Below are positions 1,297-31,357 of a stretch of DNA of 64,000 bases, piece by piece. Source of the stretch: a virus. The translations under genes and the position numbers were made by a program. The stretch lies in IMG/VR virus record IMGVR_UViG_3300036768_000279, positions 32,001-96,000 of that record. The stretch is one strand, 5' to 3'. Positions within the stretch are counted from its first letter, which is position 1, and each line of letters begins with the position of its first letter. Below the pieces are notes generated by a model. The model made no database searches, was not told the DNA's origin, and saw only the letters and a program-made list of their open reading frames with translations.

Positions 1297-2169
1297 ATGG
1301 CTGGCGAAACCAAAATCCTCACTGTCGGTCAGGCTGCATCAGCCCTTGACATTTTTCTATCCGCTAACGGTGCCGCTGTTAGTGGACAATATGTTGGGTT
1401 CCAGCTATTCGACGCAGCGAACGTCTCCGCAGTAAGTGGAGTGGCGTTAAATCCTGCACTTGGACAATACACTGGCTCTGGATTGATCCCAGCCGGATAC
1501 CAGCTTGGTAGTTGGCATATTGATTGGACTATCGTTACAGAGACAAATTCTGTTGTACGTGCCAGCGAACCATTCCAAGTTCAAGACCTAACAGTATCTA
1601 TTGGATTTGTGCCGCCAACGGACAAAACGGCTACCATCTACGACGCTGTACGCATTGACATTGGTGATCCAGAAGGTCATATTTTTGACGATAACTTCTT
1701 GCAGCACGTTTTGATCAAGGCCGTTCGAAGACTCAATCAGGCTCTTGGTCTGTCTCGTACTTCTAGACCAATAGGCATTCCGGGCGGATTCGGTGGCCCG
1801 AAGATTCAAGTTGCAGAACTGACTGTTGATGTTGAGGCTGGCACAATCTCCCCCAACAACGACGAGTTGTGCGATCTCATCATTTTGCAGATGGAATTCA
1901 TTATCATCACTAGTGAGACATCTGCACTAAAACGACTAGGTGCAGCTTTTGCTTCTGGTCCATTTGCAACTGTTGCTGGTGGTATTGGTAGTGAAGGTAT
2001 TTCTGTTACTAACGCTGATGGCGTAACAATCAATATCAGCACTGGTCGTTTGCAATTCCGTTCAACGCTACAACGTCTTGACGTTGAGACACGCGAAAAG
2101 GAACTAGAGACCGCAATCAAGCGTTTCCTAAGCAGAATGACCGGGAACATGGGCAAAATGATCTATTAA
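1297..2169 (+). CDS. Putative head-tail connector/neck protein
   Basis: 290 aa, follows the MCP. It has an N-terminal beta domain, then VRIDIGD...FDD.FL, which resembles head-tail adaptors. Confidence 0.5.
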   Translation: MAGETKILTVGQAASALDIFLSANGAAVSGQYVGFQLFDAANVSAVSGVALNPALGQYTGSGLIPAGYQLGSWHIDWTIVTETNSVVRASEPFQVQDLTVSIGFVPPTDKTATIYDAVRIDIGDPEGHIFDDNFLQHVLIKAVRRLNQALGLSRTSRPIGIPGGFGGPKIQVAELTVDVEAGTISPNNDELCDLIILQMEFIIITSETSALKRLGAAFASGPFATVAGGIGSEGISVTNADGVTINISTGRLQFRSTLQRLDVETREKELETAIKRFLSRMTGNMGKMIY

Positions 2170-2348
2170 TGTTTATTAAGAACTGCAAATACTGTCATGT
2201 CAGAGGCGGAAAACTAACTATTGATCATAAGCAACCAGTTTCTCGCGGAGGCACTGATAGTCCAGAAAATCTATGTGTCGCTTGTCATAAATGCAATTGT
2301 CGCAAGGGCAAGAAAACGGTAGCTGAATACATGGAGTATTTGTCATAA
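2169..2348 (+). CDS. Minimal HNH endonuclease (59 aa; absent from ORF track)
   Basis: MFIKNCKYCHVRGGKLTIDHKQPVSRGGTDSPENLCVACHKCNCRKG: CxxC, DH..P.SRGG, N, CxxCN. TAATG overlaps at both ends. Confidence 0.8.
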   Translation: MFIKNCKYCHVRGGKLTIDHKQPVSRGGTDSPENLCVACHKCNCRKGKKTVAEYMEYLS

Positions 2349-2689
2349 TGCTAGTTCACGCTCGAACCCCCCGCGGCATTCTCTACCTGAACAATGAACC
2401 AATTTACGGTAGAGAGACTGGCCGCGATCCTGCCGATGTCTCGTTCGCAGTATATGAGGCATGCAAGGATTGTTTGGAAGACGCAACATACCGCGAAGGC
2501 TATTTGCGAGAAAAGTTTGGATGGACTCAAGGCGAAATCGCATTTACTTACGGCGAATTAAGATGGTTGCCGGAAAGTACACTTCGTAAAATCGCTAAAG
2601 GCATGGGCCTTAATGAGGCTAAGCGTACAACTTCAAAGCAACTAGTTGAAGATATCAAAAGAGCACTAAGGGATGTCGTTAAGACCTGA
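2348..2689 (+). CDS. Hypothetical protein
   Basis: 113-aa ORF with GGAG RBS, in operon context. Confidence 0.6.
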   Translation: MLVHARTPRGILYLNNEPIYGRETGRDPADVSFAVYEACKDCLEDATYREGYLREKFGWTQGEIAFTYGELRWLPESTLRKIAKGMGLNEAKRTTSKQLVEDIKRALRDVVKT

Positions 2690-3245
2690 AAGACAGACTC
2701 AACAAGTTAACATTGACTACCAGTGTCCATGGACACAGGAGCGTGGTGGTATTTTGAGTTGGGTACAGGCTTCTGGTATTTACTTCGCAGAATACGCCTT
2801 CAATCCTAGCGGTGTTCATTCGATTGGAATTCAGCTAAACGATGTTGAGAATGTGAATATGACACGTCAGCCATTTCAGCAATACATTCGCAACATCGAC
2901 ATACCGATGGCTAGAGTTGGCGTAGCTACTCAGGGAGATTTTTTGACTGACTGGGTTTATCCCGTTGGTACAATCAATCCGGGAGATTTGGCGTATGCTG
3001 GCCCAAGCGGAATGATCACAAATTCTGCGTCTTTTGGCGGCGAAGTGGTTGGCAAATTCTTGAGCGTTCTAACACCCAAGCCTCATACTGTTACATTGCG
3101 TGGCATGGGATTCTCACGCCAGTATATCGACACTACCAAACCTTCTAAGCCACTTATCTGGGAAAACAATCCAGCGGATGCGATCCGTTTGGCGACGCCC
3201 GGATTCATTAAGGTACGCATTGATATGGGAGCGAGTCTAAGATAA
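2673..3245 (+). CDS. Decoration-protein paralog (virion structural)
   Basis: PGDLAY...VVGKFLS...GFIKVRID matches PGDVLY...VVGKALS...GFLKVRID of the 1-158 ORF. Confidence 0.55.
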   Translation: MSLRPERQTQQVNIDYQCPWTQERGGILSWVQASGIYFAEYAFNPSGVHSIGIQLNDVENVNMTRQPFQQYIRNIDIPMARVGVATQGDFLTDWVYPVGTINPGDLAYAGPSGMITNSASFGGEVVGKFLSVLTPKPHTVTLRGMGFSRQYIDTTKPSKPLIWENNPADAIRLATPGFIKVRIDMGASLR

Positions 3246-3784
3246 TGGTACAGATCACGCCCAATCAAGACTTCTCTACAGCAAGCGGAATTCTTAATTC
3301 TCCGTTTATGGAAGCTGTCTATCACTCCTTTATGAGTGAAGCTTTTGTAGATCTCGGACGTTCTGTGACGTTCCATCTGCCCCCCATCAAGGAGCAAGAC
3401 GTTCAGACTCAATCCCAAGCCGCCCCACAACAATACAATCCTTTCTTTTCAAGAGTGCCTGTGCCTGCCACGAATACACGCAATACTGGCTACAAAGTTA
3501 CGCCGCGTGACGTGACTTACAAAGCACAGATTGTCATTGGTCCATTGAGCAATGACAAGAGATTGCAGGGTATGGGTTGGCTCAATGAAAACGAAGCCAT
3601 GATCACTGTCGTGATTGAGGCTCTTGAACACGTAGTCGCCGCTCTTGCCGTTTCCATTGAGGGTCGTAGATACACCGTTGTCGAAACGAGACCGATTGGC
3701 TTTTCTGTACGCAGATACTTGATGGTTAAGCTACGTGCTATTCAGGAAACAGAAAACCCCTCTCCTGATAAGGTGGTAGGATGA
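3245..3784 (+). CDS. Putative head-closure/neck protein
   Basis: 179 aa, positioned in the neck module. C-terminal IEGRRYTV...RPIG pattern resembles head-closure proteins. Confidence 0.45.
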   Translation: MVQITPNQDFSTASGILNSPFMEAVYHSFMSEAFVDLGRSVTFHLPPIKEQDVQTQSQAAPQQYNPFFSRVPVPATNTRNTGYKVTPRDVTYKAQIVIGPLSNDKRLQGMGWLNENEAMITVVIEALEHVVAALAVSIEGRRYTVVETRPIGFSVRRYLMVKLRAIQETENPSPDKVVG

Positions 3785-4290
3785 TTACGCAAGTCAAGCA
3801 ATGTTCTAGATGTTATGGCTACAAGGATCTATCGGCTTTTCCTCAGAGCAAGAACGCAAAGGATGGCTTATATTCTTGGTGCAAGGTGTGCAATACAGCT
3901 AGTACGCAAAAATACTACGCCGCTAATCGTGATGCTGTCAACGTCAAGCGTCAAGCTAATAAACAAAAGAACAAACAAGACTGGCGTGCGTTTTTTATAC
4001 AACTCTATGGGGAGATGCCTCAATGCTCTATTTGCTTGAAAGCATTGGATTGGAATGCTGATGCAGAAACAAACTGTGGTACGGTAGTAAACTGGGATCA
4101 CCGTCATGGCAATCATGCGGCACATGTGAAGCCTGCCAATTGGCTCCATGGGCACTTATGTAACGAAAAGAACCAAGCTATTTGGCATTCATTTGATTTT
4201 GGTATTTTGTGTAACTACTGCAATGGTTCGTTACCAACCAATAATAGAATTCAGTGGCTTGAACAAGCCCTGAAGTATGCGAGGCAATAA
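3781..4290 (+). CDS. His-Me finger (endonuclease VII/HNH-like) homing endonuclease
   Basis: N-terminal CxxC...F...DGL..WCKVC zinc finger, then CSIC, WDHRH, LCNYCN. Confidence 0.7.
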   Translation: MITQVKQCSRCYGYKDLSAFPQSKNAKDGLYSWCKVCNTASTQKYYAANRDAVNVKRQANKQKNKQDWRAFFIQLYGEMPQCSICLKALDWNADAETNCGTVVNWDHRHGNHAAHVKPANWLHGHLCNEKNQAIWHSFDFGILCNYCNGSLPTNNRIQWLEQALKYARQ

Positions 4291-5315
4291 TGGGCTTAGA
4301 GTACAAACTACGTAGCTTACTCAAGCTTAATCTCAAGTTGTTTTTAGACATGCATTTTTTGCGTGAGTCTAGCTTTATCAATGTAGCTTCTGGTCAATTG
4401 TTTTATGACGGAAGCGACATGAGCGTTCTTCTTCCAGATACTCAAGCAGACGATACGTTGTACGGCGTCTCTAATGGTCAGGTGTGGCAATCGCCCTTTA
4501 GACAATTTGTCTATGAGTCTGGTGTACCATTGGATGGTACAAATGTCAGCACTCCACCATTGCAATGTTCTGGCGTATACATTCATGGTGCGTTCAGACC
4601 AACAAATGATTCTCAGTTTGGACATACTATTGACTACATTAATGGTCGCGTCATCTTCAATTCGCCGCAACCACTTGATCTCAAGGTTAACGCGACCTAT
4701 TCTGCTCGCGAAGTACGTATTGGCTTCGAACACGATTTCAATCAGCAATTCAATCGTGGATTCTTGGAAAGCAAGTTTGCCACGAATCCATTGACATCGA
4801 ATCAGCTAGTCTATCCATCTGGACAGGCACAACCATTTCCAGCCGTTTTCATTGAGGTAGACAATCGCTCAATGACGCCATACGAGCTTGGTAACCGTAG
4901 TGCTGTGATCCGAGACAAGGTTATTTTGCATGTCTGGGCACTAGACGATTTGCAGCGTGACAATATTGTGGACATCTTGACATCGCAATGGCGTAAGAGC
5001 ATTCCGATTATCAATTTCAATCGAGCACCTTTGCCGCTATCTGGGATTTACAACACCCTATCTCCTGAGTATGTGCCGTACCAGGAAATGCTGCGGAACA
5101 ACAAACTGATCACAACTGTGGGTTCCGGCACGCCAGTAGTCTATACGGCCTACATCACGGATATTGCAGCCGAGAACATTCAGGCAACAGCAGAGTATGA
5201 ACGTGCCATCGTGACATACGAAATGGATGTCTACCTAAACGCTCCAGTAACGCCTTTGGGTAGCTACTTTGGTCCTATCTCAACGATACCTACGATCGAG
5301 GATCCATTGGGCTAG
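4290..5315 (+). CDS. Putative tail terminator/tail completion protein
   Basis: 341 aa, before the major tail gene. PAVFIE...ILHVWALDDLQRDNIVDIL resembles tail-terminator proteins. Confidence 0.5.
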   Translation: MGLEYKLRSLLKLNLKLFLDMHFLRESSFINVASGQLFYDGSDMSVLLPDTQADDTLYGVSNGQVWQSPFRQFVYESGVPLDGTNVSTPPLQCSGVYIHGAFRPTNDSQFGHTIDYINGRVIFNSPQPLDLKVNATYSAREVRIGFEHDFNQQFNRGFLESKFATNPLTSNQLVYPSGQAQPFPAVFIEVDNRSMTPYELGNRSAVIRDKVILHVWALDDLQRDNIVDILTSQWRKSIPIINFNRAPLPLSGIYNTLSPEYVPYQEMLRNNKLITTVGSGTPVVYTAYITDIAAENIQATAEYERAIVTYEMDVYLNAPVTPLGSYFGPISTIPTIEDPLG

Positions 5316-5316
5316 T

Positions 5317-5326
5317 TTAGTGTAAT
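5317..5326 (+). promoter_or_regulatory. Putative late promoter TTAGTGTAnT, copy 2
   Basis: Exact motif in a 12-nt intergenic gap. Confidence 0.65.
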
Positions 5327-5327
5327 C

Positions 5328-5774
5328 ATGGACATGGGAAATTGTGGACGGAATGGCTGTAAAGAGTTGGTCTCTAGAATAAATCCTAAGACTGCTAAGC
5401 CATTTTTCTATTGCGAAACACACAGAACACAGAAGCATGCTGGTTTTCGATTGGCATCTTCTCGTATTGGCGAACGAAGACGCGACCAGTCAATCGACTA
5501 TAGACGCAAACTTCGTTTGAAATTTTTGGAAATGTATGGCGGTAAATGCATTTGCTGTCATATAGACGAGGAAGCATTTCTTGCTCTTAACCATATTCTA
5601 GAAGATGGTGATGAGCATAGAAAGCAAAGAACGAGCTATGGGATCTATATAGACGCTACAGCAAAATACGACCCCGATCGCTTTCAAATCCTTTGTCACA
5701 ATTGTAACTTTGCAAAGTATCGAAACGGTGTCTGTCCTCACCAACTAGTTGGGCAGAAGGGAATTCAATCATGA
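5328..5774 (+). CDS. HNH-like zinc-finger endonuclease (start may be 5334)
   Basis: YGGKCICC...LALNHI..DG...FQILCHNCN.AK..GVCPH, a common phage HNH-like family. The usual DH is NH here. Confidence 0.7.
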   Translation: MDMGNCGRNGCKELVSRINPKTAKPFFYCETHRTQKHAGFRLASSRIGERRRDQSIDYRRKLRLKFLEMYGGKCICCHIDEEAFLALNHILEDGDEHRKQRTSYGIYIDATAKYDPDRFQILCHNCNFAKYRNGVCPHQLVGQKGIQS

Positions 5775-7177
5775 CAAATAATCGCGTATTTTGGGCGATT
5801 GAACAGTTGGCTATTAAGGCAAACTCTGCACCTGCTACGAGCGGTGTGGCTGCTTTCAATGCCCGTAACTACGCTACAGGTGCAATTGCATCGGGCGTGA
5901 ACGAAGTCAACGGCCTCTGGGAAGTGCCGCGTGGCGTTCAAAGTGCGGGTATGAGCACTAAGTTCAATCTACAACAGGTTTTCCAGCTTGGTCAGATTGA
6001 GCTTTATGAATACTCGGAACGTCAGCCAGACATCGAAATGACAATTTCGAAGTGTGTGGACGGAACTAAGCCGCTCTTCTTGATGGTTACGGACCCATCG
6101 TTCACGGACATTGTTGGCAAGACAGCCAATTACCGTGTTGACGTTGCGTTCCAAATCTATCCAGATACGAAGTTCCGTGCTACCGGCAAGCCAGTGTCTA
6201 TCTGCACTTGTTCCGGTATGTACCTATCGAACATTTCGTACACCTACCCGATCGATGGCTTCGTCACAGAAGACATCACGTTGGTTGGTAACGACAAGAT
6301 CTGGGGCTCGTTCATCAACGTTTCTGGTGTAACAGCCGGAAACGGTGGAACGGAAACAATCCTACCGTTCCCGACGCCTGGATTTAATGGTAACATTGAT
6401 CCGAACGCCCCGGATGGCGGACCTTCTGGCGTATTCGGTCACGATGGTAACACTTCGGCTCTTGTCGAAGGCGGTGCTTTTGAAGTTGCTGGTGGTGCCG
6501 ATCGCTTCGGTATCATCGTGGTTGGTTCTGGCGTTGCTCGTCGTGAAGAAGTAGATATCAGCCACTCGATCTTGCCGCGAGACATCCCAGGCGTGACCAC
6601 ACCGAATATCTCTGGCATCAACGCCGCTTACGTCAATGGTGGATTCGGTGCTCAGGGACCGGGTACTGCTTCTAACTTCACGCAATTGATTGCTGACGCC
6701 AACACGGACTACATCGCTGAGCACATTCAGACAATCACTGTTTCCTTCGCGATTGCCCGTAAGGACATTTTCGAGCTTGGAAGTAAGCGTCCGTTCGTGA
6801 AGGTTCCAGAGTATCCTCTGGAGGCTACAGCAAGCATCACCGTGATCACCGCTCAGGGTGACCTTGTTGATGCAACGTCGAACATCGACTGTGGTCCTGA
6901 TAACACACGCGAAAGCAACACGATCATCATCCGTACTTGCGACGGTCTCCAAGTTGACCTTGGTGACGCTAACCGCTTGACGGGCATTGAAGTTGCTGGT
7001 GGCGAAGCTGGTGGTGACAACATGACTGTCACGTACAACTACTCAAGCTTCAACACGTTCTACGTTTCGCACGACTTCTTCCAGCCGAATCACCGTGTGA
7101 CGATCTTCGGTACTGGACGTAGCCGCTTCAACGTAGGCAAGCCGCCATTCCGTAGAAGCGACATCGGTCTCTTCTGA
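5771..7177 (+). CDS. Major tail (tube) protein
   Basis: 468 aa. GVQS...QVFQLGQIELYE...PDIE.TISK and KDIFELGSKRPF repeat pattern suggests two tube-like halves; upstream of TMP. Confidence 0.65.
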   Translation: MTNNRVFWAIEQLAIKANSAPATSGVAAFNARNYATGAIASGVNEVNGLWEVPRGVQSAGMSTKFNLQQVFQLGQIELYEYSERQPDIEMTISKCVDGTKPLFLMVTDPSFTDIVGKTANYRVDVAFQIYPDTKFRATGKPVSICTCSGMYLSNISYTYPIDGFVTEDITLVGNDKIWGSFINVSGVTAGNGGTETILPFPTPGFNGNIDPNAPDGGPSGVFGHDGNTSALVEGGAFEVAGGADRFGIIVVGSGVARREEVDISHSILPRDIPGVTTPNISGINAAYVNGGFGAQGPGTASNFTQLIADANTDYIAEHIQTITVSFAIARKDIFELGSKRPFVKVPEYPLEATASITVITAQGDLVDATSNIDCGPDNTRESNTIIIRTCDGLQVDLGDANRLTGIEVAGGEAGGDNMTVTYNYSSFNTFYVSHDFFQPNHRVTIFGTGRSRFNVGKPPFRRSDIGLF

Positions 7178-7293: not shown

Positions 7294-7326
7294 AAGGGAT
7301 GCACCTAATTGGTGTGTCCCTTTTTT
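7294..7326 (+). terminator. Intrinsic terminator after major tail gene
   Basis: AAGGGATGCACC-TAATT-GGTGTGTCCCTT followed by TTTT. Confidence 0.75.
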
Positions 7327-7329
7327 CGT

Positions 7330-8523
7330 ATGACTGTACAGGAAAAAATTCAGCAGCTACTTTGGGATAGACGCTACGTCCAAATCCCGGCGGAGTATGC
7401 TAAGCCGGGATACGAGTACGTCATCATTAAGGACATGACGACGGAAGATCGTAACATCCACTCTTTTGTGCGTCGTCGAGAGCTTGAGTCTGCACGCAAG
7501 CAGGGAGTACCAACTGAGGCAGAGCTTCTTGCGGAAGCCAAGAAAGTTGGCTTGTGGACAAGCGAGGATGATCTCGTCATGACTAAGGCCGACGAGCACA
7601 TTGCCTTCCTCGAAGCCGAGCAAAAGAAGCAAAAGTTCCTTGCTCGCAAGAAATCACTACAGGTACAAATCGACGCAGCCCTAGAAAAAAAGCGACTAAC
7701 GCAATCTAAGCGTAACGAATACTTCATTCACAGTGCGGAGTTCTACGCCAACGAAGTAGCCGCAAACGTCCTCGTCAGACGAGTCGTGTTCGATATTGAA
7801 GGAAGACCGTTGTGGCCCGACGACGCCTCTTTCCTTCATTCCAAGCACAATCATATCAACTTTTTGATATACGTTACAAACGAAGTTCTATCGGAGGGTA
7901 TTCTGCCGATTGACGAAATTCGTGAAGTAGCACGTCATCCAGAGTGGCGATTGACATGGGTTCTGCAACGCGAGAACCTACACACAATATTCAATCGTAA
8001 CATTGGTGATTTGAGTATCAATCAAAAACTTTTGATCTATTGGAGTCGTGTTTATGATTCTGCTTTGGAGTCTACAGATCCGCCTTCATTAGACATCATC
8101 AACGACGACGACAAATTCGATGAGTGGCTATCAAATCGTGAATTGAACGACAAGGAGTCAAGCAATTCTAAGCGTCTTGGAGCTAAGGACCACAACGAAC
8201 GCATGCAGCTACTTGATGGAGAATACAGCGAAACATGTAATTGTGGTGCTAAAGCCAAGAACGTCGGCAAGGGGCTTGGCGAACGTGTACCTCACACGAC
8301 AACTTGTCCATGGGGAACGTTCCGCAGATATACCCCACAAGAACGTGAACAGATCGCAAATCAAACGTATGCCCGTAACTCTGATCGTGTTCGTTCATTG
8401 CTTGAGCATGAACAGCAAACGGTCATCGAAAAGGGACAGGTCGAAGAACACCATCTACGTGGTACAAAGACACGCCACATTCTTGGTATGAAAACTGACG
8501 TAGTGTCTACACACAAGAAATGA
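7330..8523 (+). CDS. Hypothetical protein, possibly tail assembly chaperone
   Basis: ATG 7330 preferred because 7309 lies inside the terminator. Helical; shares a GxWTxEDD motif with 9072-9791; CNC...H...C near the C-terminus. Confidence 0.5.
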   Translation: MTVQEKIQQLLWDRRYVQIPAEYAKPGYEYVIIKDMTTEDRNIHSFVRRRELESARKQGVPTEAELLAEAKKVGLWTSEDDLVMTKADEHIAFLEAEQKKQKFLARKKSLQVQIDAALEKKRLTQSKRNEYFIHSAEFYANEVAANVLVRRVVFDIEGRPLWPDDASFLHSKHNHINFLIYVTNEVLSEGILPIDEIREVARHPEWRLTWVLQRENLHTIFNRNIGDLSINQKLLIYWSRVYDSALESTDPPSLDIINDDDKFDEWLSNRELNDKESSNSKRLGAKDHNERMQLLDGEYSETCNCGAKAKNVGKGLGERVPHTTTCPWGTFRRYTPQEREQIANQTYARNSDRVRSLLEHEQQTVIEKGQVEEHHLRGTKTRHILGMKTDVVSTHKK

Positions 8524-9068
8524 AAAAGCAAAATCAATCATTGGATCAACTCAGTAGGAGTCTTGATCGTAGATCGCGTCACCTTATGGTACAGACTCTA
8601 CAGAGATTTGAAGAGTCATTTCCAGACGTAGACAATACTCGTCAAGGACAAATCTTCAAGTCTGATCTTCGCAACATGTTTAACGATGTGATGCGTGCCC
8701 AGAGAGACGAACTGAATGATTACGAGGTCGAGTATCGCCCTCTGCGTATGACCGAAAACGGCACTTTAGCGATGACCCAATCTTTTATGCAGACCGTGCA
8801 GAAGGTTGAGTTTGGCTCTAGAGGGTCAGTTCCGTTCATGAAGATCTTCTCTAGCAAAGAGAACGCCCGTGTTTTGGACGCCATTCGTATGGAGTTCGGG
8901 GCCGGGGTATTAGACAATGAGGACGGTGGCCTTGTCCTTGAAATTGTTGGTATTGAATCATGCGTAAATTGTGTATTACCTATCATGGACAAGTACCGCC
9001 TGATGGAACAGGTTGGTGTTAAGTACCGTGAGTGGCGGCGTGAGGTTGTTAGACGCTATAGGAGTTAG
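8520..9068 (+). CDS. Hypothetical protein
   Basis: 182 aa, ATGA overlap. Confidence 0.65.
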   Translation: MKKQNQSLDQLSRSLDRRSRHLMVQTLQRFEESFPDVDNTRQGQIFKSDLRNMFNDVMRAQRDELNDYEVEYRPLRMTENGTLAMTQSFMQTVQKVEFGSRGSVPFMKIFSSKENARVLDAIRMEFGAGVLDNEDGGLVLEIVGIESCVNCVLPIMDKYRLMEQVGVKYREWRREVVRRYRS

Positions 9069-9071
9069 GGC

Positions 9072-18704: not shown

Positions 18705-18876
18705 CGACGACATCGTACTGAAAAAGCTTGGTGAACCAGAAGAAAAAAAGCTTCCGGTTGGTATCTATGTCATTGAATTTGATGGCCGTGCCGTCTTTGT
18801 GCGACGAATGGGCGGTCGTTTCATGCCTGTGTCAGCACAGGAACAAGAAGAGCTATGTCAACGATTTCGCCTCTAG
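18694..18876 (+). CDS. Small hypothetical protein
   Basis: GTG start, 60 aa; fills the gap between adjacent genes. Confidence 0.45.
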   Translation: MSANDDIVLKKLGEPEEKKLPVGIYVIEFDGRAVFVRRMGGRFMPVSAQEQEELCQRFRL

Positions 18877-19806: not shown

Positions 19807-19857
19807 ACTATTTCGAGGCGTAGCGTTTCGCTTAGCCTTGGGTGTAAGGGGTAGTAC

Positions 19858-23300: not shown

Positions 23301-25132
23301 CGAGATCATTTACGTTCTTGCCTGGACCGCTGAAAAACTCAGACTTGTTGGTGCAGTGCAGTGGCTTGACTTACGCAAATGGTAGTGCTGGTACTACAAA
23401 TTTGATTCCTCCATTTGCTGTGTCTGGATCGTATTTCGACAGTCCACAAAACGGATTCTCGGTTGGTTTCTTTATGGCAAAGAGAGCCAATGCTGTTACC
23501 AACAATGTGGACCCTATGCTTGTGTATGGTCTTGTTAATGCTACAAATTCCACAAACACTGCAATTGATTTCAATCGTGGTTGGGCAATTGTTGGTGACG
23601 ACAACGGCAACATTAAAATGGTGATGTCAGTGGGTGGTGGTGGTTACTACGATAATCCCACCGTAGCGGTGCCTATTCAATCTGGTCAGATCGTTTGTGG
23701 TACTTACGATAATGACAGTCCATACGAAGATCAAACACGCTTCAACAACTATCTATTTGGCAATCCAAAACCACCGAGGTTGGATTTCTGGAACCATTAT
23801 TGTTGGACGTGGGATCCTACACAAAAAGAACTGAAGTGTTTTGTCAATGGTCAAGAGGTTGATCGCAAGGGAACAAAATTTGCGGTTGATCCATTGAACG
23901 GTGGTCCTGCATCAGGCTTGAATCCAATTGTGCCAGTCAATCCAGCGGCTCGCATGATCACGTTCTTGTCGCACCAAAATGCCTCTCCATGGGACTTTAG
24001 TGCATCCGCCTTGCATGATGAACATTCCATCATTACTGACGTTTTCTATTTCTCTCGTCAACTCACTGAAGCTGAAGTGCGTTACATTTCTCAAAATGGG
24101 ATCGATGGTGCAAACGGCACAGCAACAAGCGGAACGATCGGTGGATACATTCTAGGATCTATGCAGGCGTCTGGTTCTATTGGCGGTTATCAAAGAGGCT
24201 TGGACACCACTTCAGGCATCTTTGGTGGCTTCAATTTCTCTGCTGAGGCGGCGTCCGGTATTATTGGAGGATACATTTCCGGCGTCACGTTCTTTACGGC
24301 TGCACCATCTGGATCGTTCGGCGGATATATCCGTGGATACGATTTTGGATCAGGTCTCTTTGGCGGATTTATCAAGGGTGCTGGAACACTAAGTGGTATC
24401 CTTGGTGGATTCATGCTTGGAGGTCTTCGTGGAAGCATGCAATTCGATGGCGGATTCACAGTACAAGCTTTTGCCGCTAAGGACTTCGACTCGCAAGTAG
24501 TCATTCGCCAGAATACGACATCTGACTTTGATGCCAAACTAGTCATTTTCCAAGCCGAAACCGGACCACTTGTAGATATCATTGTTCCGTCAAGAACCGT
24601 AAGTGGAGTAACCGCCCCATTCAACCAATACTTTGTTGGTGCTGCATCAGGCACACAAGGCAAGTCTATCGTACAAACACGCTGGACATTTGGAGACTTG
24701 ACGCCATCTGTTTCTGTTTCGCCAAGTGGTGATGGATTCTATCCAGTTCAGCATTACTATGCTGGTAGCGGATTCTTCATTGCCAAGTTTGAAGCAATCG
24801 ATTCGAATGGCATCCATGGATCGGCTACACGCATTATTAATGCCGCATCTGGCATTGATCCTGTGATTGTCAGCCTATCTGGAGTGCCACGTTCTGGCAA
24901 TGCTGCACTGACAGTGGATTTCGTGACGACAGTTGATATTTTGCCACCTGGGGTAGCCATCAATACAAGTCTGTTGAACTTTGATGATGGACAGTCTACG
25001 ATTACGCTCAGCCCGACTCACGTCTATACAGAACCAGGAACTTACAAACCAATCTGGATTGTTCGCGATTCTCGTGGCGTGATTTGGTGTGATAGCCTCG
25101 AAGCCGGTAACGACTTCTTGAGAGGGGTCTAG
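20315..25132 (+). CDS. Large tail fibre/adhesin: four LamG (ConA-like) modules, Gly-rich repeat, two PKD domains
   Basis: Module starts LIGFWPLNE, LLAYYPF, LVGYWPC, LEGYWRFN; LYKDG/VYVDG/WING/FVNG; PKD motifs WTFGD and NFDDG...HVYTEPGTY. Confidence 0.75.
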   Translation: MANFLNDGSLIGFWPLNEPSGSPIFLNYSPARSRQPSGISFDFHVAQAESEAAAQVKSVWPGTATVFNPESGVNYNGFMVQGYWKLGTDSSPYSRYLVLGNGCSQVREQTLSQNVAQSGITVGIWVYPNSNGYLNFYTDANTASYNGETEGTRCHMLFGQKQFAQLGGWQIGISGAMDQGAQFNSAASNRQLTAYASIERNAGSPTVLRTPIESGRYTHLTFTFRYLDGTTDQVVLYKDGRVAASGTSNTGAGGASATCLANSNLTGRAVTIGGGDNANTGTNNYGGTCGWNHLVSGAYIFRRVLHEGEILDLHNGQTLQPLEGNRKHPIKVELTDSQLLAYYPFRSVGWPDVSKNHRPLIGQKDEGPSTTIIPIPGPFKAGAMLNNGTNQSNHVVATSGLIYDMINARSWTIGMFAGPTNGLGRPSNMLFSMGSVSATTTVGAPAAITTSTFGMALTEFGAPNRIRFSAYPLGDITASVFNIDTATSGYYRGVSHHYAVAYDDSTKGIAVYVDGHLQGSGTLAHSLSDQLLRLAGSGYPLMFTNGVSDTISDAASHGTLAAGGQDLFVGPIIVMGRALLPEEIMYVAQSGIDTTPTWRTPHDPRLVGYWPCTDFKLDDVIAEDRARVWEPFPGNLSRGDTTTKWAAWYVSPRFNQFGTRTTPAALDSYGVLGITSGIFGVHGLSPGTAVVADASPARSSIANLALRYKPVNEQNNLACQNPIGDFVLGYEVTPSGNIPATPFGLTADNTKFEFNSTLHVYGNLAGSTTDGEVRSFLTTVDAAQGSGVSIVFASRTGTFSAANYTALISGVLPYGIPSKVLLHAKFDSPYNVNADAAGTTPLTLSLWINGNLASKRRMTAATARLWTDNTADSSGDDFLLEFGGEAGNDTLTTQISRDGGLGEIYMREIFLMRGTFDKDEIQALATSGIQNPSIAGYTPTLPKTQVTVFDSNLEGYWRFNGFAGGGSGTTDLSLKSHHLTPLAEQKNRAGAANQATRSFTFLPGPLKNSDLLVQCSGLTYANGSAGTTNLIPPFAVSGSYFDSPQNGFSVGFFMAKRANAVTNNVDPMLVYGLVNATNSTNTAIDFNRGWAIVGDDNGNIKMVMSVGGGGYYDNPTVAVPIQSGQIVCGTYDNDSPYEDQTRFNNYLFGNPKPPRLDFWNHYCWTWDPTQKELKCFVNGQEVDRKGTKFAVDPLNGGPASGLNPIVPVNPAARMITFLSHQNASPWDFSASALHDEHSIITDVFYFSRQLTEAEVRYISQNGIDGANGTATSGTIGGYILGSMQASGSIGGYQRGLDTTSGIFGGFNFSAEAASGIIGGYISGVTFFTAAPSGSFGGYIRGYDFGSGLFGGFIKGAGTLSGILGGFMLGGLRGSMQFDGGFTVQAFAAKDFDSQVVIRQNTTSDFDAKLVIFQAETGPLVDIIVPSRTVSGVTAPFNQYFVGAASGTQGKSIVQTRWTFGDLTPSVSVSPSGDGFYPVQHYYAGSGFFIAKFEAIDSNGIHGSATRIINAASGIDPVIVSLSGVPRSGNAALTVDFVTTVDILPPGVAINTSLLNFDDGQSTITLSPTHVYTEPGTYKPIWIVRDSRGVIWCDSLEAGNDFLRGV
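24125..24432 (+). repeat. Seven imperfect peptide repeats SGxxGG[YF]xxG
   Basis: TSGTIGGYILG, ASGSIGGYQRG, TSGIFGGFNFS, ASGIIGGYISG, PSGSFGGYIRG, GSGLFGGFIKG, LSGILGGFMLG. Confidence 0.85.
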
Positions 25133-25134
25133 GC

Positions 25135-28100
25135 ATGAACATTCTTGTATCTAATGGCATTGTTGTTAGCGGCGTAGGTGTGCCGCTCAATGGCATTGCA
25201 TTTCCATCTGGTCAGTTTGGTTCTGGCGTGCCGGGATCTCAACTAGCAGCTTTCTTGTCTTCTGCTAATGCTACGTTTGGTTTCAATCTAACTCCACACA
25301 ACCTACAAACTGAATGGATTCCCGTTGGTCCTCCAGAGACCTTCCATGGTGCTAGCGGACAGTTGCCAGAAATTGGCAAACCAATGGAGATTTTCATTGG
25401 CGACTTCTACTTCCGTGGCAGTGTAGTTCACTCAGATTACACAACAAGTATTGGTGGAACGATTGTAAATGTGACATTAGAAGATGATCGTCGCTACTTG
25501 CGTCGCGTCAAGGTTCATACAGAAGATCTTGGTCAGAGCGTACCAAGCGGCGTTGTATCTGTTGCTAGAGCATTCCGAATTCTGAATGGTCTTGAGGACG
25601 TTGACGGCAATCCATCAGAGCCTCTTGTAAAGGAATATGATCGCATCCTTCAATTCGGTGGTACGTACGATCAAATCTTGGCGGCTATCGACCTTGCTTA
25701 CAACGAGGGCAATTGTTCGATTCCGGTTTCTATTCTGCCCACGGTAGAACAGATTGAGAAGAACATTGGCGGAACTGTAACGGCCATTCGTTTTCAGTTC
25801 AATCTAGACACACTGGATGACGTGCTTTCGCGTGTATTGCTAGATACTGGTTATGACTGGTACTGGAATATGGATGCACAGCGTGTCGCACTTATCAACA
25901 AAAAGAAACAGTTCGACATTAGTGAAGCCGATATCCTGAATCTGGTGTCGCAGTTTGGTAGTGCGTCTGGACTAAACGAAACGAAACAGCTTGGCTTTGG
26001 TCAAGACGTTGTTCCAGATCCAACACGCTTCCGCGTTCTTGGCGGACACCAAGAAGGCTTCATCAACTCTCATTTGTTGAGTCCAATTGATGGCATGGAT
26101 ACGTCCGCATTGGACGGCAATGTTGTATTCACTAAGGCATGGGACAAACTGAGTGTTGGATTCTATGACGCTGATGGCTTCTTCCGTACATACCGACCAA
26201 CAGAAAAGGAATTGCAGCTTGCGTTGGCGGGCATTGAGCAATGGACATACTACAAGATCTATCAGACGGCTAGCGGCACAGCGAACCCTCCAGGATACGG
26301 ATACCCACCTGACAACGGCTCGATCGCCGCTCAAGACCCATCATTCCAAAGTCGTCTTGATCCTAACATGCCGCTTGCTGGTATTGCTACTGGAGCAGCC
26401 GAGTCTGGTTTGAGGGTGATCAGCAATCGTCGAGACCAAGAACAAAACTGGGTAATCGCTTTCTACAATCGAGTACGCGATCATGCATCACGTCACTATG
26501 GACGCTCGTATGTGGCTGAGGGCTTGTTGTACAATCAAGCTTCCGGTCTTTTCCAGCTTGTTGATGCTGCATGGGCAAATATCGAAAATCAGGTACAGGG
26601 ATATTCTCTATCTGCTTCTGGTACAGTTACAACAAGCGGCGTGTTCGTAGAAGACTATGAAATCAATCGTGCTCTAGGTCCGATAAGTCCATTCGTGACA
26701 GATGATTTTAGAGTTCGTGCATACTGTGTTCTGCCTCGCGATACGGTGTATGGTCCTCTTGGCGACGACAATCCAGCAAGCTTTGCAAACTGGACGGAAG
26801 ACGCTCCGCCATTCAATCCAAGCGGAGACGGCAGACACTACATTCCGATCACTTTGCAGGACGTTGGTGATCGTGTCATTGACCCGCATAGTGAAGCAGA
26901 CCTTTACGGATTTGAGTCATATCCAAAAGGCACATTGCTTTGTCAACTACCAATCAACGCCGGACCATCTGGCGGGATTGTGAATGATGGTATCATCTTC
27001 AATTTGGCTACGATGTTGACAACTGTCAACAAGCTGACCGGCTCTGGTTTGCTAGATATCATCAATCCATCGCAAGTCTTGAATGTCTATGACGCACTCT
27101 CTGGAGTGGCTATTCCGGTACAGTCGCGTCTGCGTTACGGCCAAACATATCCAAGTCAATGGGTATTGGGCGACCTCCATTATGAGCGTCACGAAGACGT
27201 ACAGCTAGACGACCAGTTTGTACCGTGGGCTTTCTCGCCAGAGGGAAATCAAACATCTCTCCAGATCATGACGGATCGTGCTATTCGTCGTGTACAGGGC
27301 AAAATTGTGCCGAAGTCGTCTTCTCGCTATGCGGATTTCCAGCAAGTGGGATTGCCACTATTGTCCTTTGATGCATTTGCTGAGCAGAACATTGGACCAT
27401 CGGGTCTGTACGGCGAGATTTCGCACGGTGTTAGCGAAATGAACATCAGCTTTGGCGTCGATGGTTTCATTACACGCTACAAGATTCAGTCTTACTATCC
27501 CAAGTTCGGTCGCGAGGCCCCACTGGGTGAACGTGTGCGTGCCCAGCTAAACGGCATCCTCAATCCAATCGATTTCGCCGATCTGCAACTTCTCGACCCA
27601 AATCCGGGCAAGCCATCGAACCCGGCACTACCGGGCGATACGTTCGCACCACCGATCTTTTTCGACGCAGAGCAGAATGCTGTGCGTGTAACGATTACTG
27701 AAGTCAACAATGTTTTCACACTTTCAAGCACTCCCGGTACCGCTATCGATGAACGCTATCGTGGTATCGACCAGCACGCTTACACGAAGCCGCCTATAGC
27801 TCTGAGTTCATCTAACATTGATTTCCGTGAGGGGGCAATTTGTATCGATGGATTCTTGAACATAGGCGATAAGGCAGTCTATCACACCGACAACTTCCAG
27901 TTGCCAAATGGCAACACTATTCTAAGGTATTTCACACAAGGGCGTCCATTTGCCAACGGAACCATTGTTCAGATCGAACGTGTCAATCCAAGCAATACGT
28001 CTAACTATGACGTAACGATTGTTGGTGGCACGGCATCTAGAGCTATCTTCAATCTACCAGTTTTGAATGGCACAGTGACAGTTGGAGACAGAACTACATT

Positions 28101-28449
28101 GGCAGCACAAGGCAATGCCAAGATCATTCCTGGTGAAATGGATGGTACGGTTTACCTCAATGGAACTACTTCAAGTGCCGCTGGTGTTGTGCCTGTAGAA
28201 ATCACGTCTATGTCAGATCAGGGACTCGTAACAGCAAGAGCTACATGTCGTCCATTGAACACGGATGGTCAGGTCGTTAGTTCTGGAACGATCTATTCTA
28301 ACGTTATTCCGATTCCATTCCCACAGTTTGCTTCATCTGGCGACAGAGGATTCTTGGCAAGTGCCGTTGTTCCAAGTGGCTCTTTCGGTGCAACAGCTAC
28401 AGCCAACTTCATCGAAATTGTCAAGCCAGCCTTCTTTAGATATCAGTAA
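25135..28449 (+). CDS. Large tail-tip/hub structural protein
   Basis: 1104 aa, in the tail module, beta-rich. Confidence 0.55.
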   Translation: MNILVSNGIVVSGVGVPLNGIAFPSGQFGSGVPGSQLAAFLSSANATFGFNLTPHNLQTEWIPVGPPETFHGASGQLPEIGKPMEIFIGDFYFRGSVVHSDYTTSIGGTIVNVTLEDDRRYLRRVKVHTEDLGQSVPSGVVSVARAFRILNGLEDVDGNPSEPLVKEYDRILQFGGTYDQILAAIDLAYNEGNCSIPVSILPTVEQIEKNIGGTVTAIRFQFNLDTLDDVLSRVLLDTGYDWYWNMDAQRVALINKKKQFDISEADILNLVSQFGSASGLNETKQLGFGQDVVPDPTRFRVLGGHQEGFINSHLLSPIDGMDTSALDGNVVFTKAWDKLSVGFYDADGFFRTYRPTEKELQLALAGIEQWTYYKIYQTASGTANPPGYGYPPDNGSIAAQDPSFQSRLDPNMPLAGIATGAAESGLRVISNRRDQEQNWVIAFYNRVRDHASRHYGRSYVAEGLLYNQASGLFQLVDAAWANIENQVQGYSLSASGTVTTSGVFVEDYEINRALGPISPFVTDDFRVRAYCVLPRDTVYGPLGDDNPASFANWTEDAPPFNPSGDGRHYIPITLQDVGDRVIDPHSEADLYGFESYPKGTLLCQLPINAGPSGGIVNDGIIFNLATMLTTVNKLTGSGLLDIINPSQVLNVYDALSGVAIPVQSRLRYGQTYPSQWVLGDLHYERHEDVQLDDQFVPWAFSPEGNQTSLQIMTDRAIRRVQGKIVPKSSSRYADFQQVGLPLLSFDAFAEQNIGPSGLYGEISHGVSEMNISFGVDGFITRYKIQSYYPKFGREAPLGERVRAQLNGILNPIDFADLQLLDPNPGKPSNPALPGDTFAPPIFFDAEQNAVRVTITEVNNVFTLSSTPGTAIDERYRGIDQHAYTKPPIALSSSNIDFREGAICIDGFLNIGDKAVYHTDNFQLPNGNTILRYFTQGRPFANGTIVQIERVNPSNTSNYDVTIVGGTASRAIFNLPVLNGTVTVGDRTTLAAQGNAKIIPGEMDGTVYLNGTTSSAAGVVPVEITSMSDQGLVTARATCRPLNTDGQVVSSGTIYSNVIPIPFPQFASSGDRGFLASAVVPSGSFGATATANFIEIVKPAFFRYQ

Positions 28450-30605
28450 TGACACTCGCATCAGGACAGCTACCGTACAACTACGATCACGGAAAAGGAC
28501 GTTTCCGTGTTCCAAATCCGTATTCATCAATACATCCAATTGGACCGTCTGGAGTTCTATTGGAACAGGCATTGTTCGTTCTAACCGCAGAACGTCGCAA
28601 GCTATTGAAGTTTAGCTTTGGCGAAGGCAACAACTATCTGTATGATGCTTTCGTCTACGTTAACCCTGTTATTGCTCCATCAGGGCCGTATGAGCCCAAA
28701 GCAAATGGATCAACGATTGGCAATGCGGTGTATCCTGGTGCTGCGTTTATCATCGATCACATTCAAGACTTGCGATATGCAATGAACCAGCACTTTTCAT
28801 TCATTTCGCAAGATACTAATCTAGGAAGCGATGACTATAGAGCTGCATGGCTACAAGCTTTGTATCCAGAAAGCCCTAGTGGTTTTTTGTTTGCAACAGA
28901 TCCCGATACTGGCAATGATGTGACTGGTCATTGGGCACATCGTGCTCCATCAGACATTGGGGCATTTGTAGACTATACATTACCTGAAGTGCTTGGTGCA
29001 TCAGGAATTTTGTACGACATTGATTTTGGAGAATTAATGTGGAATCCCCCACCGCACTTGTCGAGTTTTGGTAATGACACGATGCATTCTCGAAAAGTCG
29101 ATGGTACGAACGATACGTTTTCTGTACAGCAATTCCCCATTTTTCCTGCTTTTCAAAAGACCAACGGAGACTTGGTGACATTGACTGGTCGCGAACCAGA
29201 TGTTATTCCACAAGCTTCTGATTATCAGATTGATCACATTGCTTCTGGTGCCATCAGATTCGATGGCTACGCCCTGTTTAGCAACACCAAGTTATTTGTG
29301 GGTCGTAATGGCAACATCTTCAACACCACAACACCAGATTTTACAGTTGACGCCGAAGGTCATCGTGTTGTTCTTGATGGCGGTAACGTTGCCAGCTCGC
29401 GTATATTTGCTTCGCCGTCTGCACAAACATCCGGCGTCTATCGTATAGCGGCCAAAAATCGTTTCGCTGATTTTCCTACAACTACTATTGAATCTGGCAA
29501 GATGAGCTTTTGGCCAACGATTACATCGTATTGGCCAAATTCCGACGCTGTTGTACAGCCGTATGGCCAAACACAAGTTGTGGGCTATCTTGGCTATCAT
29601 GTATTTGATGATTGTTTGTGGCAGACGGACGTTTCGTTCAATCAATCAGTGACCCCAGATACGGGGTTCTGCTCTGGTTTGGCGATTATGTCTCCGTATA
29701 CAGGACACCCATTATGGGTGCGTTACGCAGATCAGACAGCCGTTGATTCTATTCCACTTGCGGGCTTTCCTGCGAAAAAAAAGAATTGGTCAACTGGCAA
29801 GGGATTGGAAAGGGTTACTACAAACGACATTCGTCGTCTACACCCCAACATACAACACGATGCTACGCTTGTATCTGGTCAATTTATTATTATGCAATAT
29901 AATGATATGCTTGACCTTACAACGTCTTTTGCTACAACATCAGACAGTGTTGAAACTGGTCTAGTAGACAACGTTCCGCTTGGTGTTGGTTCGTCTACTA
30001 CTATTGAAGTTAATGATTTGTGGCGTGATGATGTAACTGGCGAATACTGGATTGCAAATAGCAATTTTGCTGGCTTTGATGTTTGGAAATTCGACTCGTC
30101 TTTTAAGTACATCAATAAATACATATTCAATCCAAATAGCGGTATTAACAACGCTCGTGGTTTCTTCATGAATGGCAATCACTATCTATTCCATGGCGAG
30201 TTTGGTGCAACAGGCACAACTCACATTCGTGGTAGTGGCATCTATCCTGTACGATTTGGTGCAGACGGTACCGAGCCCTATGACAATACTAGTAACCAGC
30301 CGCAAGTTGGTGTACTGTGGATTTGGCCCAACGAGGGAAAATTCATTAATGGTGCTCCATTTCTTGGCACAAGACGTTTTGCCGAAATTCTTGATATGAT
30401 ATACGTGCCGTCTGCAACGCACGTTGTGCCTGGGGTATATGCCTTAGTAAGATGGGCAAGAGCAGAAGGTAGCTTCAATGACTTGTATTTGTTGCGTCTT
30501 GAGGAAACTACTGACGCCTGGGAAATTCGTGCCGTCACGGAATTGGACACATCGTTTTTAAGCCCAAATCAAGGTAGGCGAGAACTCTTATACATGACCT
30601 ATTAG
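28449..30605 (+). CDS. Tail-associated structural protein
   Basis: 718 aa; the more AT-rich C-terminal half may be a variable receptor-binding region. Confidence 0.5.
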   Translation: MTLASGQLPYNYDHGKGRFRVPNPYSSIHPIGPSGVLLEQALFVLTAERRKLLKFSFGEGNNYLYDAFVYVNPVIAPSGPYEPKANGSTIGNAVYPGAAFIIDHIQDLRYAMNQHFSFISQDTNLGSDDYRAAWLQALYPESPSGFLFATDPDTGNDVTGHWAHRAPSDIGAFVDYTLPEVLGASGILYDIDFGELMWNPPPHLSSFGNDTMHSRKVDGTNDTFSVQQFPIFPAFQKTNGDLVTLTGREPDVIPQASDYQIDHIASGAIRFDGYALFSNTKLFVGRNGNIFNTTTPDFTVDAEGHRVVLDGGNVASSRIFASPSAQTSGVYRIAAKNRFADFPTTTIESGKMSFWPTITSYWPNSDAVVQPYGQTQVVGYLGYHVFDDCLWQTDVSFNQSVTPDTGFCSGLAIMSPYTGHPLWVRYADQTAVDSIPLAGFPAKKKNWSTGKGLERVTTNDIRRLHPNIQHDATLVSGQFIIMQYNDMLDLTTSFATTSDSVETGLVDNVPLGVGSSTTIEVNDLWRDDVTGEYWIANSNFAGFDVWKFDSSFKYINKYIFNPNSGINNARGFFMNGNHYLFHGEFGATGTTHIRGSGIYPVRFGADGTEPYDNTSNQPQVGVLWIWPNEGKFINGAPFLGTRRFAEILDMIYVPSATHVVPGVYALVRWARAEGSFNDLYLLRLEETTDAWEIRAVTELDTSFLSPNQGRRELLYMTY

Positions 30606-30611
30606 TGTATT
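30602..30611 (+). promoter_or_regulatory. Putative late promoter TTAGTGTAnT, copy 6
   Basis: Overlaps the TAG stop of the upstream gene. Confidence 0.6.
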
Positions 30612-30697
30612 GTTACGTGCGTTGGTATTTTTACCATAGCAGTGCAGGGTCAAACGTTCTCTCGTGAGATAGTTGCCCATCACGTAGAGGAAAACAC

Positions 30698-31357
30698 ATG
30701 GTAAGTGGAATTCGTTTTTTTGCATGTTCTGGAGCTATGGGTGGAACTCCGGCCACTCGTGCAACTCCAAACCTTGAGATCTTCAACCTTGAGCCGGGTG
30801 CTACCAACAATCCTAACCGCATGGGATTTTTCGGTTCTGCTGGTGCTCCAAACAGTGCGGTCATTGTTGGGCAGTATCAAGATCGTACTCACCGCTGTGA
30901 CGAGACTGGCGTTGACTTTGGGGCGATGATCAATGTCAAATTCACTGGTGCAACTACTGCCAGTGTCTCTGGCGTTCCATTCACGGCCGGATTGCAGAAT
31001 ATTTCACGTAGCTCCGGCACCCTGCTTTGTCGTTTCACGGAACCGAATGGTACGGCTGTAATCACTCAGAACGCTACGTTTAGTGCAATCAATCTCACGG
31101 CTGGGTCTGGTGCCCCGAACGTGTCAGATCTCGTGAGTACGGGTATTACCATCAAGGCTGCACAACTTCCCGATACACAAGGTTTTGCCGGTAGTACATC
31201 TTGGCAGAACATCGATAGCAGCGGTTCTGCTCTAGCCCTCAACGCTCAGAACGGTACGGCGAGCGTACACGACTTCCATTTGATCATCAGCGGTACTCCG
31301 ACTGCCGCCGGACGCAAGGTGAACTTCGCATACTACATGCAACTTGAGTATCTGTAA
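30698..31357 (+). CDS. Putative virion structural protein
   Basis: 219 aa, Ser/Thr/Gly-rich; GAGG RBS, own promoter motif and terminator. Confidence 0.55.
   Translation: MVSGIRFFACSGAMGGTPATRATPNLEIFNLEPGATNNPNRMGFFGSAGAPNSAVIVGQYQDRTHRCDETGVDFGAMINVKFTGATTASVSGVPFTAGLQNISRSSGTLLCRFTEPNGTAVITQNATFSAINLTAGSGAPNVSDLVSTGITIKAAQLPDTQGFAGSTSWQNIDSSGSALALNAQNGTASVHDFHLIISGTPTAAGRKVNFAYYMQLEYL

Follow-up and report, generated by a model that had tools for sequence, protein, structure and literature searches.

Why should the neck and tail proteins of a large virus be studded with the dipeptide Ser-Gly (SG), and does the answer lie in the glycosyltransferase (GT) genes carried by the same genome? The question is raised by the 64,000-nucleotide stretch analysed here (the window), which covers bases 32001–96000 of the 147,927-bp IMG/VR virus record IMGVR_UViG_3300036768_000279, a record with direct terminal repeats. 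Genes in the window run from the major capsid protein (MCP) through a neck and tail module to the baseplate hub, a replication block (RecA, DnaB, primase, a PD-(D/E)XK nuclease and DnaE by Pfam), a sigma factor and, directly after the sigma-factor gene, a glycan island of about 19 kb. A preliminary description had proposed that SG marks exposed virion proteins for O-glycosylation. Our analysis indicates that a small residue (A/P/V/T/G/C) followed by Ser-Gly and an aliphatic residue is probably a selected surface tag on outer neck, tail-tube, baseplate and fibre proteins. Ser O-glycosylation of the outer tail proteins by phage-encoded soluble GTs ranks first among the explanations considered, at what we judge to be a little under an even chance.

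Every SG count in the preliminary description proved exact on recounting: 7 in 186 residues (protein encoded at 17265), 7 in 219 (30698), 12 in 505 (15746), 19 in 1104 (25135) and 39 in 1605 (20315, with 5 TG and 18 GS), and, among proteins described there as poor in SG, 6 in the 1774 residues of the tape-measure protein (TMP), 0 in the four open reading frames (ORFs) at 7309–10419, 5 in 1095 for DnaE, 1 in 498 for DnaB and 0 in the MCP. The claim that SG is enriched beyond composition held up in within-protein shuffles. All ORFs in the 1297–31357 block together contain 129 SG, compared with 66.2 expected (z 8.35), which places SG first of the 400 dipeptides; the runner-up reaches z 3.6. In this block the observed/expected ratio (O/E) is flat for NG (1.17) and DG (1.10) and depressed for TG (0.71), and the SG ratio of the non-structural genes is 0.93. 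Across the genome (about 150 ORFs), SG enrichment is found only in the tail module and in a fibre block at genome positions 102938–108628.

The virion proteins that bear on the question are given below with their SG counts, observed versus expected. Pooled counts combine the window protein with its orthologs over five genomes unless stated.

171–1208, + strand: MCP (PHROG major head protein match); SG 0 vs 1.2, pooled 3 vs 5.9.
1297–2169, + strand: 290-residue protein next to the MCP, a possible decoration or neck protein; SG 4 vs 2.2, pooled over four genomes (no G012 ortholog) 14 vs 7.2.
2673–3245 and 3245–3784, + strand: two small proteins of the head–tail connector region; pooled SG 9 vs 3.5 and 6 vs 2.4.
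4290–5315, + strand: 341-residue core tail protein; SG 6 vs 1.6 (p 0.003), pooled 25 vs 8.7.
5771–7177, + strand: 468-residue core protein, putative tail tube from its position; SG 7 vs 3.5, with none after residue 281, pooled 30 vs 14.9.
7309–15743, + strand: four ORFs preceding the TMP and the 1774-residue TMP itself, internal or assembly proteins; SG 0 vs 3.0 and 6 vs 10.8.
15746–17263, + strand: 505-residue protein following the TMP, putative distal tail protein by its position; SG 12 vs 3.8, pooled 51 vs 17.4.
17265–17825, + strand: 186-residue β-sandwich tail protein, its fold having no significant PDB match; SG 7 vs 1.7, pooled 29 vs 8.5.
18855–19496, + strand: 213-residue tail protein; SG 6 vs 2.6, pooled 32 vs 8.3.
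20315–25132, + strand: 1605-residue tail-tip or fibre protein (Pfam Laminin_G_3 and PKD); SG 39 vs 16.8.
24107–24409, + strand: about eight 14-residue repeats, S-G-x-x-G-G-Y/F in translation, at residues ~1265–1365 of the 20315 protein and probably a solenoid-like fibre segment; one SG in each repeat.
25135–28449, + strand: 1104-residue baseplate hub with a gp27/VgrG/Mu gp44-like fold (Foldseek hub matches, probability 1.0); SG 19 vs 7.9.
28449–30605, + strand: 718-residue tail-tip protein; SG 12 vs 4.6.
30698–31357, + strand: 219-residue core tail protein; SG 7 vs 2.3.

The signal is strongest in an outer set of 12 neck, tail, baseplate and fibre proteins (6018 residues), where 123 SG are found against 49.1 expected (2.5-fold, z 11.5). 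These 123 are the sites actually counted; the ‘hundreds of sites’ of the preliminary description were an extrapolation. Its view of the sequence context, a small residue before and a hydrophobic residue after SG, was borne out: [APVTGC]SG[hydrophobic] occurs 55 times for 6.4 expected (8.6-fold, z 19.6), SG[VIL] 64 times for 10.0 (6.4-fold) and [AP]SG 46 times for 6.7. GS, NG and DG are flat in the outer set and TG falls to 0.67. These counts point to a pattern that is directional, Ser-specific and spread over several residues, and not to a generic turn preference. The flanks of SG are apolar, with charged residues at 5–9% compared with a background of 16% and Asp at position −1 only once for 6.7 expected.

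Simple sources of the excess were considered and rejected. Regional Ser/Gly-rich composition does not account for it, since shuffling within local windows of 10–40 residues leaves the outer-set ratio at 2.25–2.43 (z ~11) and SG outnumbers GS by 123 to 58 (p 1.5e-6). Both codon families encode the serines of SG, and their AGY share (36%) matches that of the remaining serines in these genes, which places the signal at the protein level; together with codon-family switches at conserved columns, this rejects a cause at the DNA level. Internal repeats or paralogy contribute little, as only ~8 of the 123 sites fall inside the 14-residue repeat block, and the 20315 protein without that block still has 31 SG vs 13.8 expected.

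The other late proteins (MCP, the four ORFs before the TMP, the TMP, small ORFs and an HNH endonuclease) have 6 SG where 18.4 are expected, in a grouping of outer and other late proteins that was guided partly by the SG counts themselves. A subset defined by function (TMP, the four ORFs, MCP and HNH endonuclease) gives a similar deficit (6 vs 16.4), as do the MCP, portal, terminase, TMP and 7330-family orthologs pooled over five genomes (39 vs 59.9). The preliminary description had held internal and non-virion proteins alike to be poor in SG; this stands for the MCP, the TMP and the four ORFs before it, and the replication proteins are neutral.

The SG sites are conserved as pairs. In comparisons with near relatives, the serine of SG is retained 85% of the time and other serines 47%; conservation of 80% or more is reached by 77 of 102 SG serines and by 63 of 277 others. 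The extra conservation (+0.26 for Ser, +0.31 for Gly) is confined to the two residues, with flanks at the average. Switches between the TCN and AGY codon families have occurred at 28 of the 77 highly conserved serines, and sequence comparison shows that an SG serine is rarely replaced by Thr. The Gly is retained with probability 0.96 when the Ser is retained and 0.59 once the Ser is lost, compared with a baseline of 0.73 for other glycines. In these alignments Ser and Gly are thus kept or lost as one unit, although regional divergence may contribute.

Some SG columns are ancient, others turn over. In the 718-residue family, where mean conservation is 34%, SG serines are kept in 77% and other serines in 22%. 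Seven of the 10 clade-fixed SG columns of the 15746 family are common to relatives at 26–37% identity; the hub has 16 near-fixed SG columns, of which only one is shared with distant relatives. Every member of the 30698 family at 24–40% identity has 5–11 SG, in both shared and new columns, and new SGs also appear inside lineage-specific insertions.

AlphaFold2 models of the 186-residue protein and the hub (mean predicted local distance difference test scores of 92.4 and 78, respectively) place the serines of SG outside regular strands and helices in 26 of 26 cases (7 and 19), compared with 62% of other serines (p 6e-5). This agrees with the expectation in the preliminary description that SG would lie in turns, in respect of predicted loop position; the assignment is one of secondary structure in two models and describes loop position rather than solvent exposure. 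No significant bias of SG towards the residue just before a strand was found in these models (31% vs 26%).

How widely is the excess shared? The hub is 62–90% identical in 33 other viral contigs, whose tail proteins show about a two-fold SG excess and whose adjoining replication proteins are near 1. Four complete diverse genomes (150–176 kb) have their SG-rich ORFs clustered in tail and fibre modules, with the remainder at 1.0–1.3. By family, the excess is 2–3.5-fold in every identity bin down to <35%, with the hub family at 1.6-fold in the lowest bin; the DnaB, primase, nuclease and RecA families range over 0.3–1.8 across the same bins. The clade with the excess consists of phages of 140–183 kb, and more than 10 unrelated protein families are involved. 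More diverged phages, reached with a profile of distant hubs, may have an SG-neutral hub beside strongly SG-rich neighbouring proteins; single-protein scans with distant hub homologs returned nothing or one locus. A sister clade (G016, G017) was found through its MCP at 46–48% identity. Its lead-GT homolog is 30–32% identical, and its ortholog of the 4290 protein has 9 SG vs 2.0 expected. Searches of cultured phages detected no homolog of the MCP or the hub, and comparison with the nearest bacterial GDP-mannose 4,6-dehydratase (GMD) was uninformative and gave no host signal.

Outside these groups the excess is largely missing. SG O/E is 1.04 for 22 tail, baseplate and fibre proteins of T4 and 1.25 for 8 tail proteins of T5; a generic property of tail proteins or of β-turns is rejected by these values and by the flat NG and DG. 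Distant hub homologs with the same fold (24–33% identity) mostly lie at 0.6–1.4, with P0134 (1.75) and P0135 (1.97) as exceptions, so the hub fold does not demand SG. A motif that spans more than 10 unrelated folds, leaves turn pairs flat, behaves as a pair and is avoided internally, and of which other phages have no excess, seems to require a clade-specific trans-acting reader.

Candidates for such a reader are found in the glycan island, in which Pfam identifies 11 glycosyltransferase-domain proteins (43445–59154), four S-adenosylmethionine (SAM) methyltransferases, a homolog of IMPDH and GMP reductase, a GDP-fucose-synthase-like enzyme and GMD:

43445–45253, + strand: lead GT4 (Pfam Glycos_transf_1) into which a four-Cys cluster is inserted, with DUF4214 (Pfam) at the C terminus, overlapping the sigma-factor stop.
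45250–51447, + strand: five more GTs (GT1 at 45250, GT2 at 46813, GT2 at 48094, GT1 at 49211, GT1 at 50293; Pfam).
52454–53521, + strand: full-length IMPDH/GMP-reductase family enzyme (PF00478, E 1e-101), with homologs in three of four distant genomes.
53655–60245, + strand: four GTs (53655, 55263, 55934, 58309; Pfam), interrupted by a LAGLIDADG gene at 54547–55185.
53655–60245, + strand, same stretch: four SAM methyltransferases (56857, 57426, 59054, 59730; Pfam).
60242–61159, + strand: GDP-fucose synthase-like epimerase/reductase (Pfam), clade core.
61149–62171, + strand: GMD (Pfam), clade core.

The island appears to encode soluble enzymes. No membrane segment is predicted in its proteins from 19-residue hydrophobic windows, apart from a borderline stretch in the IMPDH-like enzyme, and its Pfam scans contain no flippase or polymerase family. 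Five diverse complete genomes share a core of 26 genes, made up of packaging, virion and replication genes and four glycan genes: the lead GT4 (602 residues), the GT2 at 46813–47820 (335 residues), the epimerase/reductase and GMD. No further protein-modifying enzyme was found in this core. GMD is present in all 10 long near relatives and in four distant complete genomes, and each of five distant records (four complete) contains several GTs. The IMPDH-like enzyme may feed guanine nucleotides into GDP-sugar synthesis.

The lead GT4 is the most distinctive of these proteins. Four cysteines of its insert (C303, C306, C331 and C334) are invariant, and the insert resembles a Zn ribbon. The gene is present in all five diverse complete genomes and in five further relatives, four of which are sister-clade records (MCP 46–47% identical). 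In a scan of viral contigs, every match on a long contig was already tied to the clade by its hub or MCP (the short L145, L150 and L151 were left out), and cultured phages gave only one weak match, in phage S-EIVl. Seven homologs of 785–981 residues (P0179, P0181, P0219, P0224, P0275, P0281 and P0288) contain LAGLIDADG or intein-splicing Pfam domains. An intein usually marks an indispensable gene, and the invasion of this gene by inteins in several relatives suggests that it is indispensable to them. Homologs fused to further GT domains occur at G011:C1:81220–84285 (1021 residues; L073–L074) and G012:C1:77644–81159 (1171 residues; L082–L083).

Glycosylation is ranked first because soluble GTs are the only clade-core enzymes fit for the role of reader. 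Most probably, the sequon would be read by a phage-encoded, soluble, cytoplasmic and Ser-specific protein O-glycosyltransferase, for which the core GT4 with its Zn-ribbon-like insert is the best candidate initiator. Together with the four methyltransferases and the GMD–epimerase pair, the remaining soluble GTs would extend the first sugar into a methylated glycan containing 6-deoxyhexose, giving a glycan coat on the tail, and proteins that are internal or form lattices (TMP, chaperones, MCP, portal) would avoid the motif. It is from sequence that we infer an action of the enzymes on proteins, SG serines as their targets and the make-up of the glycan. What stands of the originally proposed sequon is a motif that is encoded at the protein level, lineage-specific, Ser-specific, conserved, predicted to lie in loops and limited to outer proteins, in a genome with a large island of GTs, methyltransferases and GDP-fucose genes that has no predicted membrane segment. 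The fullest form of the reading is slightly more tentative: in a clade of large uncultured aquatic siphophages, a sequon-directed GT4 would act at more than 100 loop sites on a dozen unrelated outer tail proteins, ten further GTs and four methyltransferases would build a methylated deoxyhexose coat, and avoidance of the sequon would have evolved in internal proteins.

Several observations weigh against glycosylation. The case for it is built from sequence and models. All 17 relatives for which the whole record was examined have glycan genes alongside the SG excess, and because they form one clade this co-occurrence amounts to one evolutionary event rather than an independent correlation; profile scans of viral contigs with the hub, the lead GT and the MCP returned one super-clade and its sister clade, and no relative lacking GTs. 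In the sister clade, SG-rich proteins are limited to the orthologs of the 4290, 5771 and 30698 products and one other ORF. Large Ser/Gly-rich ORFs of G017:C1 are SG-poor (12 vs 27.3 at 28218–33629, 6 vs 13.8 at 41611–44856 and 6 vs 12.6 at 44866–48474), a deficit that may reflect avoidance of the motif. Two independent cultured cyanophages, S-SKS1 and S-SCSM1, which have gmd/fcl and GT islands, show an SG ratio of 1.2 genome-wide and 0.4–1.9 in large virion proteins; with no comparable excess there, gmd/fcl and GT islands alone do not imply SG tags. No hub homolog was detected in these cyanophages. Among solved structures, the lead GT4 has its nearest relatives, at weak scores, in generic GT4 enzymes that act on small molecules or lipids. 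The exposed MCP carries no tag. Finally, the conservation of SG sites exceeds what is usual for surface glycosites, and both this and their apolar, charge-poor flanks also fit a packing or turn role.

Such a role is the alternative that survives best, and we regard it as possible though rather unlikely. SG would then be a structural or assembly motif free of covalent modification, either a loop or turn idiom specific to the clade or a packing element at subunit interfaces, and the island would serve another target. In such an idiom the Gly would permit the backbone to turn, the Ser would cap it and the following aliphatic residues would start a strand. This would suit the position of all modelled SG in loops, several of them directly before a strand, as well as the apolar flanks, the very high conservation of single sites (some columns being kept down to 26% identity), the resemblance of the 14-residue S-G-x-x-G-G-Y repeats to a solenoid-type structural repeat, and the sister clade, in which the lead GT comes with no broad SG excess. 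Backbone physics is universal, however, yet T4, T5 and most distant hub homologs have no excess. Neither of the classical turn pairs, NG and DG, is enriched, TG is depleted, the preference for positions before strands is not significant, and the motif is common to more than 10 unrelated folds. A neutral structural idiom would also not predict the depletion of SG in other late virion proteins.

It is improbable, in our judgement, that the island glycosylates something other than protein, such as phage DNA, a component of the host envelope or a small molecule, with the SG excess being unrelated. Both DNA and the glycans of host surfaces are known targets of phage GTs (PMC12619734), and the cyanophages discussed above carry gmd/fcl and GT islands without an SG excess. 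Against this, no thymidylate-synthase-family hydroxymethylase was found in the genome, and the island has neither a predicted membrane segment nor, in its Pfam scans, a flippase or polymerase family. Eleven GTs and four methyltransferases far exceed the needs of any DNA sugar modification known to us, and the SG signal itself would be left unexplained. Least probable of all is that a different trans-acting factor recognizes the Ser (phosphorylation, acylation, host glycosylation, or a non-covalent chaperone or assembly factor specific to the tail): the Ser-specific, pairwise, outer-protein pattern does need some reader, whose identity this proposal leaves undefined, but the clade core has no kinase, acyltransferase or other protein-modifying enzyme, and its only enzymes beyond replication and packaging are those of glycan synthesis.

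Other features of the window are side observations. The sequence TTAGTGTAYTA (up to one mismatch) is present in six copies for 1.2 expected, at window positions 1266, 17839, 19493, 19797, 30602 and 54298. The first five are all on the + strand just 5′ of structural-module genes, and two of these lie directly 3′ of GC-rich terminator hairpins, so the sequence may be a late promoter element of the structural module. It is missing at the start of the GT island, which overlaps the sigma-factor gene instead; a late-promoter motif common to the island and the tail genes was considered and rejected, as TTAGTGTAYTA marks structural genes only. The HNH endonuclease gene at 17856–18704 within the tail module and the LAGLIDADG-like gene at 54547–55185 within the GT island are recognizable from sequence as homing endonucleases lodged in operons whose genes otherwise lie close together. 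In the sister clade, the TMP homologs reach 3868 residues (G016:C1:37830–49436, L269–L270) and 4694 residues (G017:C1:57120–71204, L278–L279), so that the tails would be extraordinarily long if their length follows the usual scaling.

Literature searches turned up no phage for which such a Ser-Gly sequon has been described. To our knowledge, the only phages in which virion glycosylation has been demonstrated so far are a few mycobacteriophages, where it is found on C-terminal tails. If glycosylation at SG is real, it would give bacteriophages their first described system of sequon-directed protein hyperglycosylation, and glycan shielding of the tail would become readable from sequence across a large, abundant and uncultured phage clade. 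The soluble, Ser-specific protein glycosyltransferases would also make up a new system that glyco-engineering might use, and the sequon would bear on how tails evade recognition by hosts or predators and bind surfaces. Even if the motif is purely structural, a clade-wide, ~9-fold enriched pattern that is sharp to two residues and conserved across unrelated folds demands explanation.

One known system that the preliminary description had invoked is eukaryotic proteoglycan xylosylation. It uses a Ser-Gly acceptor core with Ser preferred over Thr, as would be the case here, but it needs acidic flanks. The phage flanks are poor in charge and avoid Asp at position −1, and because acidic residues are depleted rather than enriched the analogy fails; nor do Pfam scans of the island proteins contain a xylosyltransferase-type family, its sugar-nucleotide genes being those for GMD and the GDP-fucose-synthase-like enzyme. 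The general O-glycosylation sequon of Bacteroidota, D-(S/T)-(A/I/L/V/M/T), which accepts Thr and is served by lipid-linked transfer outside the cytoplasm, is likewise not matched, given the depletion of Asp at −1 and of TG and an island with no membrane protein. Cyanophage islands (S-SCSM1, S-SKS1, P-SSM2) are similar in placing GMD and GDP-fucose synthase beside GTs in a large aquatic phage. Those islands are accessory and come without an SG excess or a hub homolog, whereas here four glycan genes are conserved like replication and virion genes.

The closest working parallel is the bacterial autotransporter heptosyltransferase (BAHT) family of TibC and AAH, which modifies TibA and AIDA-I. In the cytoplasm, TibC adds sugar to serines of TibA but leaves its threonines bare, and N-S-G-G is one of the sites mapped (PMC4358343). 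The phage system as proposed would share with this family a soluble cytoplasmic enzyme acting on many serines of a β-rich surface substrate, one with short sequence repeats that are comparable to the 14-residue repeats of the 20315 protein (PMC4358343). For the phage, the corresponding observation is one of sequence: SG is enriched 2.5-fold, TG stands at 0.67-fold and Ser is rarely replaced by Thr. The differences are that the GT families found by Pfam in the island are GT1, GT2 and Glyco_trans_1_2 only, with no Glyco_transf_9-type domain, that each BAHT enzyme has one substrate protein while more than 10 unrelated virion proteins carry the motif here, and that the BAHT donor is ADP-heptose where the phage sugar is probably GDP-derived in a system known from sequence.

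Two systems are the nearest viral precedents. In the mycobacteriophages Che8, Corndog and Myrna, virions are O-glycosylated by phage-encoded GTs, according to a summary of that work (Freeman et al. 2023, cited in PMC12619734). As summarized there, soluble GTs encoded by the phage decorate its own virion proteins in the cell and provide a glycan shield, which is what we propose here; the mycobacteriophage glycans are carried by C-terminal extensions of the subunits that build capsid and tail tube, in contrast to SG sites dispersed over predicted loops of tail, baseplate and fibre proteins and an MCP with none. The GT set of the present phage is much larger and is joined by a sugar-nucleotide pathway and methyltransferases. 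The chlorovirus PBCV-1 has its own GMD, GDP-fucose synthase, soluble GTs and sugar methyltransferases, performs no membrane export and uses a non-canonical acceptor motif. The gene set of this type (GMD, GDP-fucose synthase, soluble GTs and methyltransferases, with no export machinery) is also present here. The chlorovirus glycans are N-linked to the MCP of a eukaryotic virus, whereas those proposed here would be O-linked to Ser on the tail proteins of a bacteriophage whose MCP has no SG.

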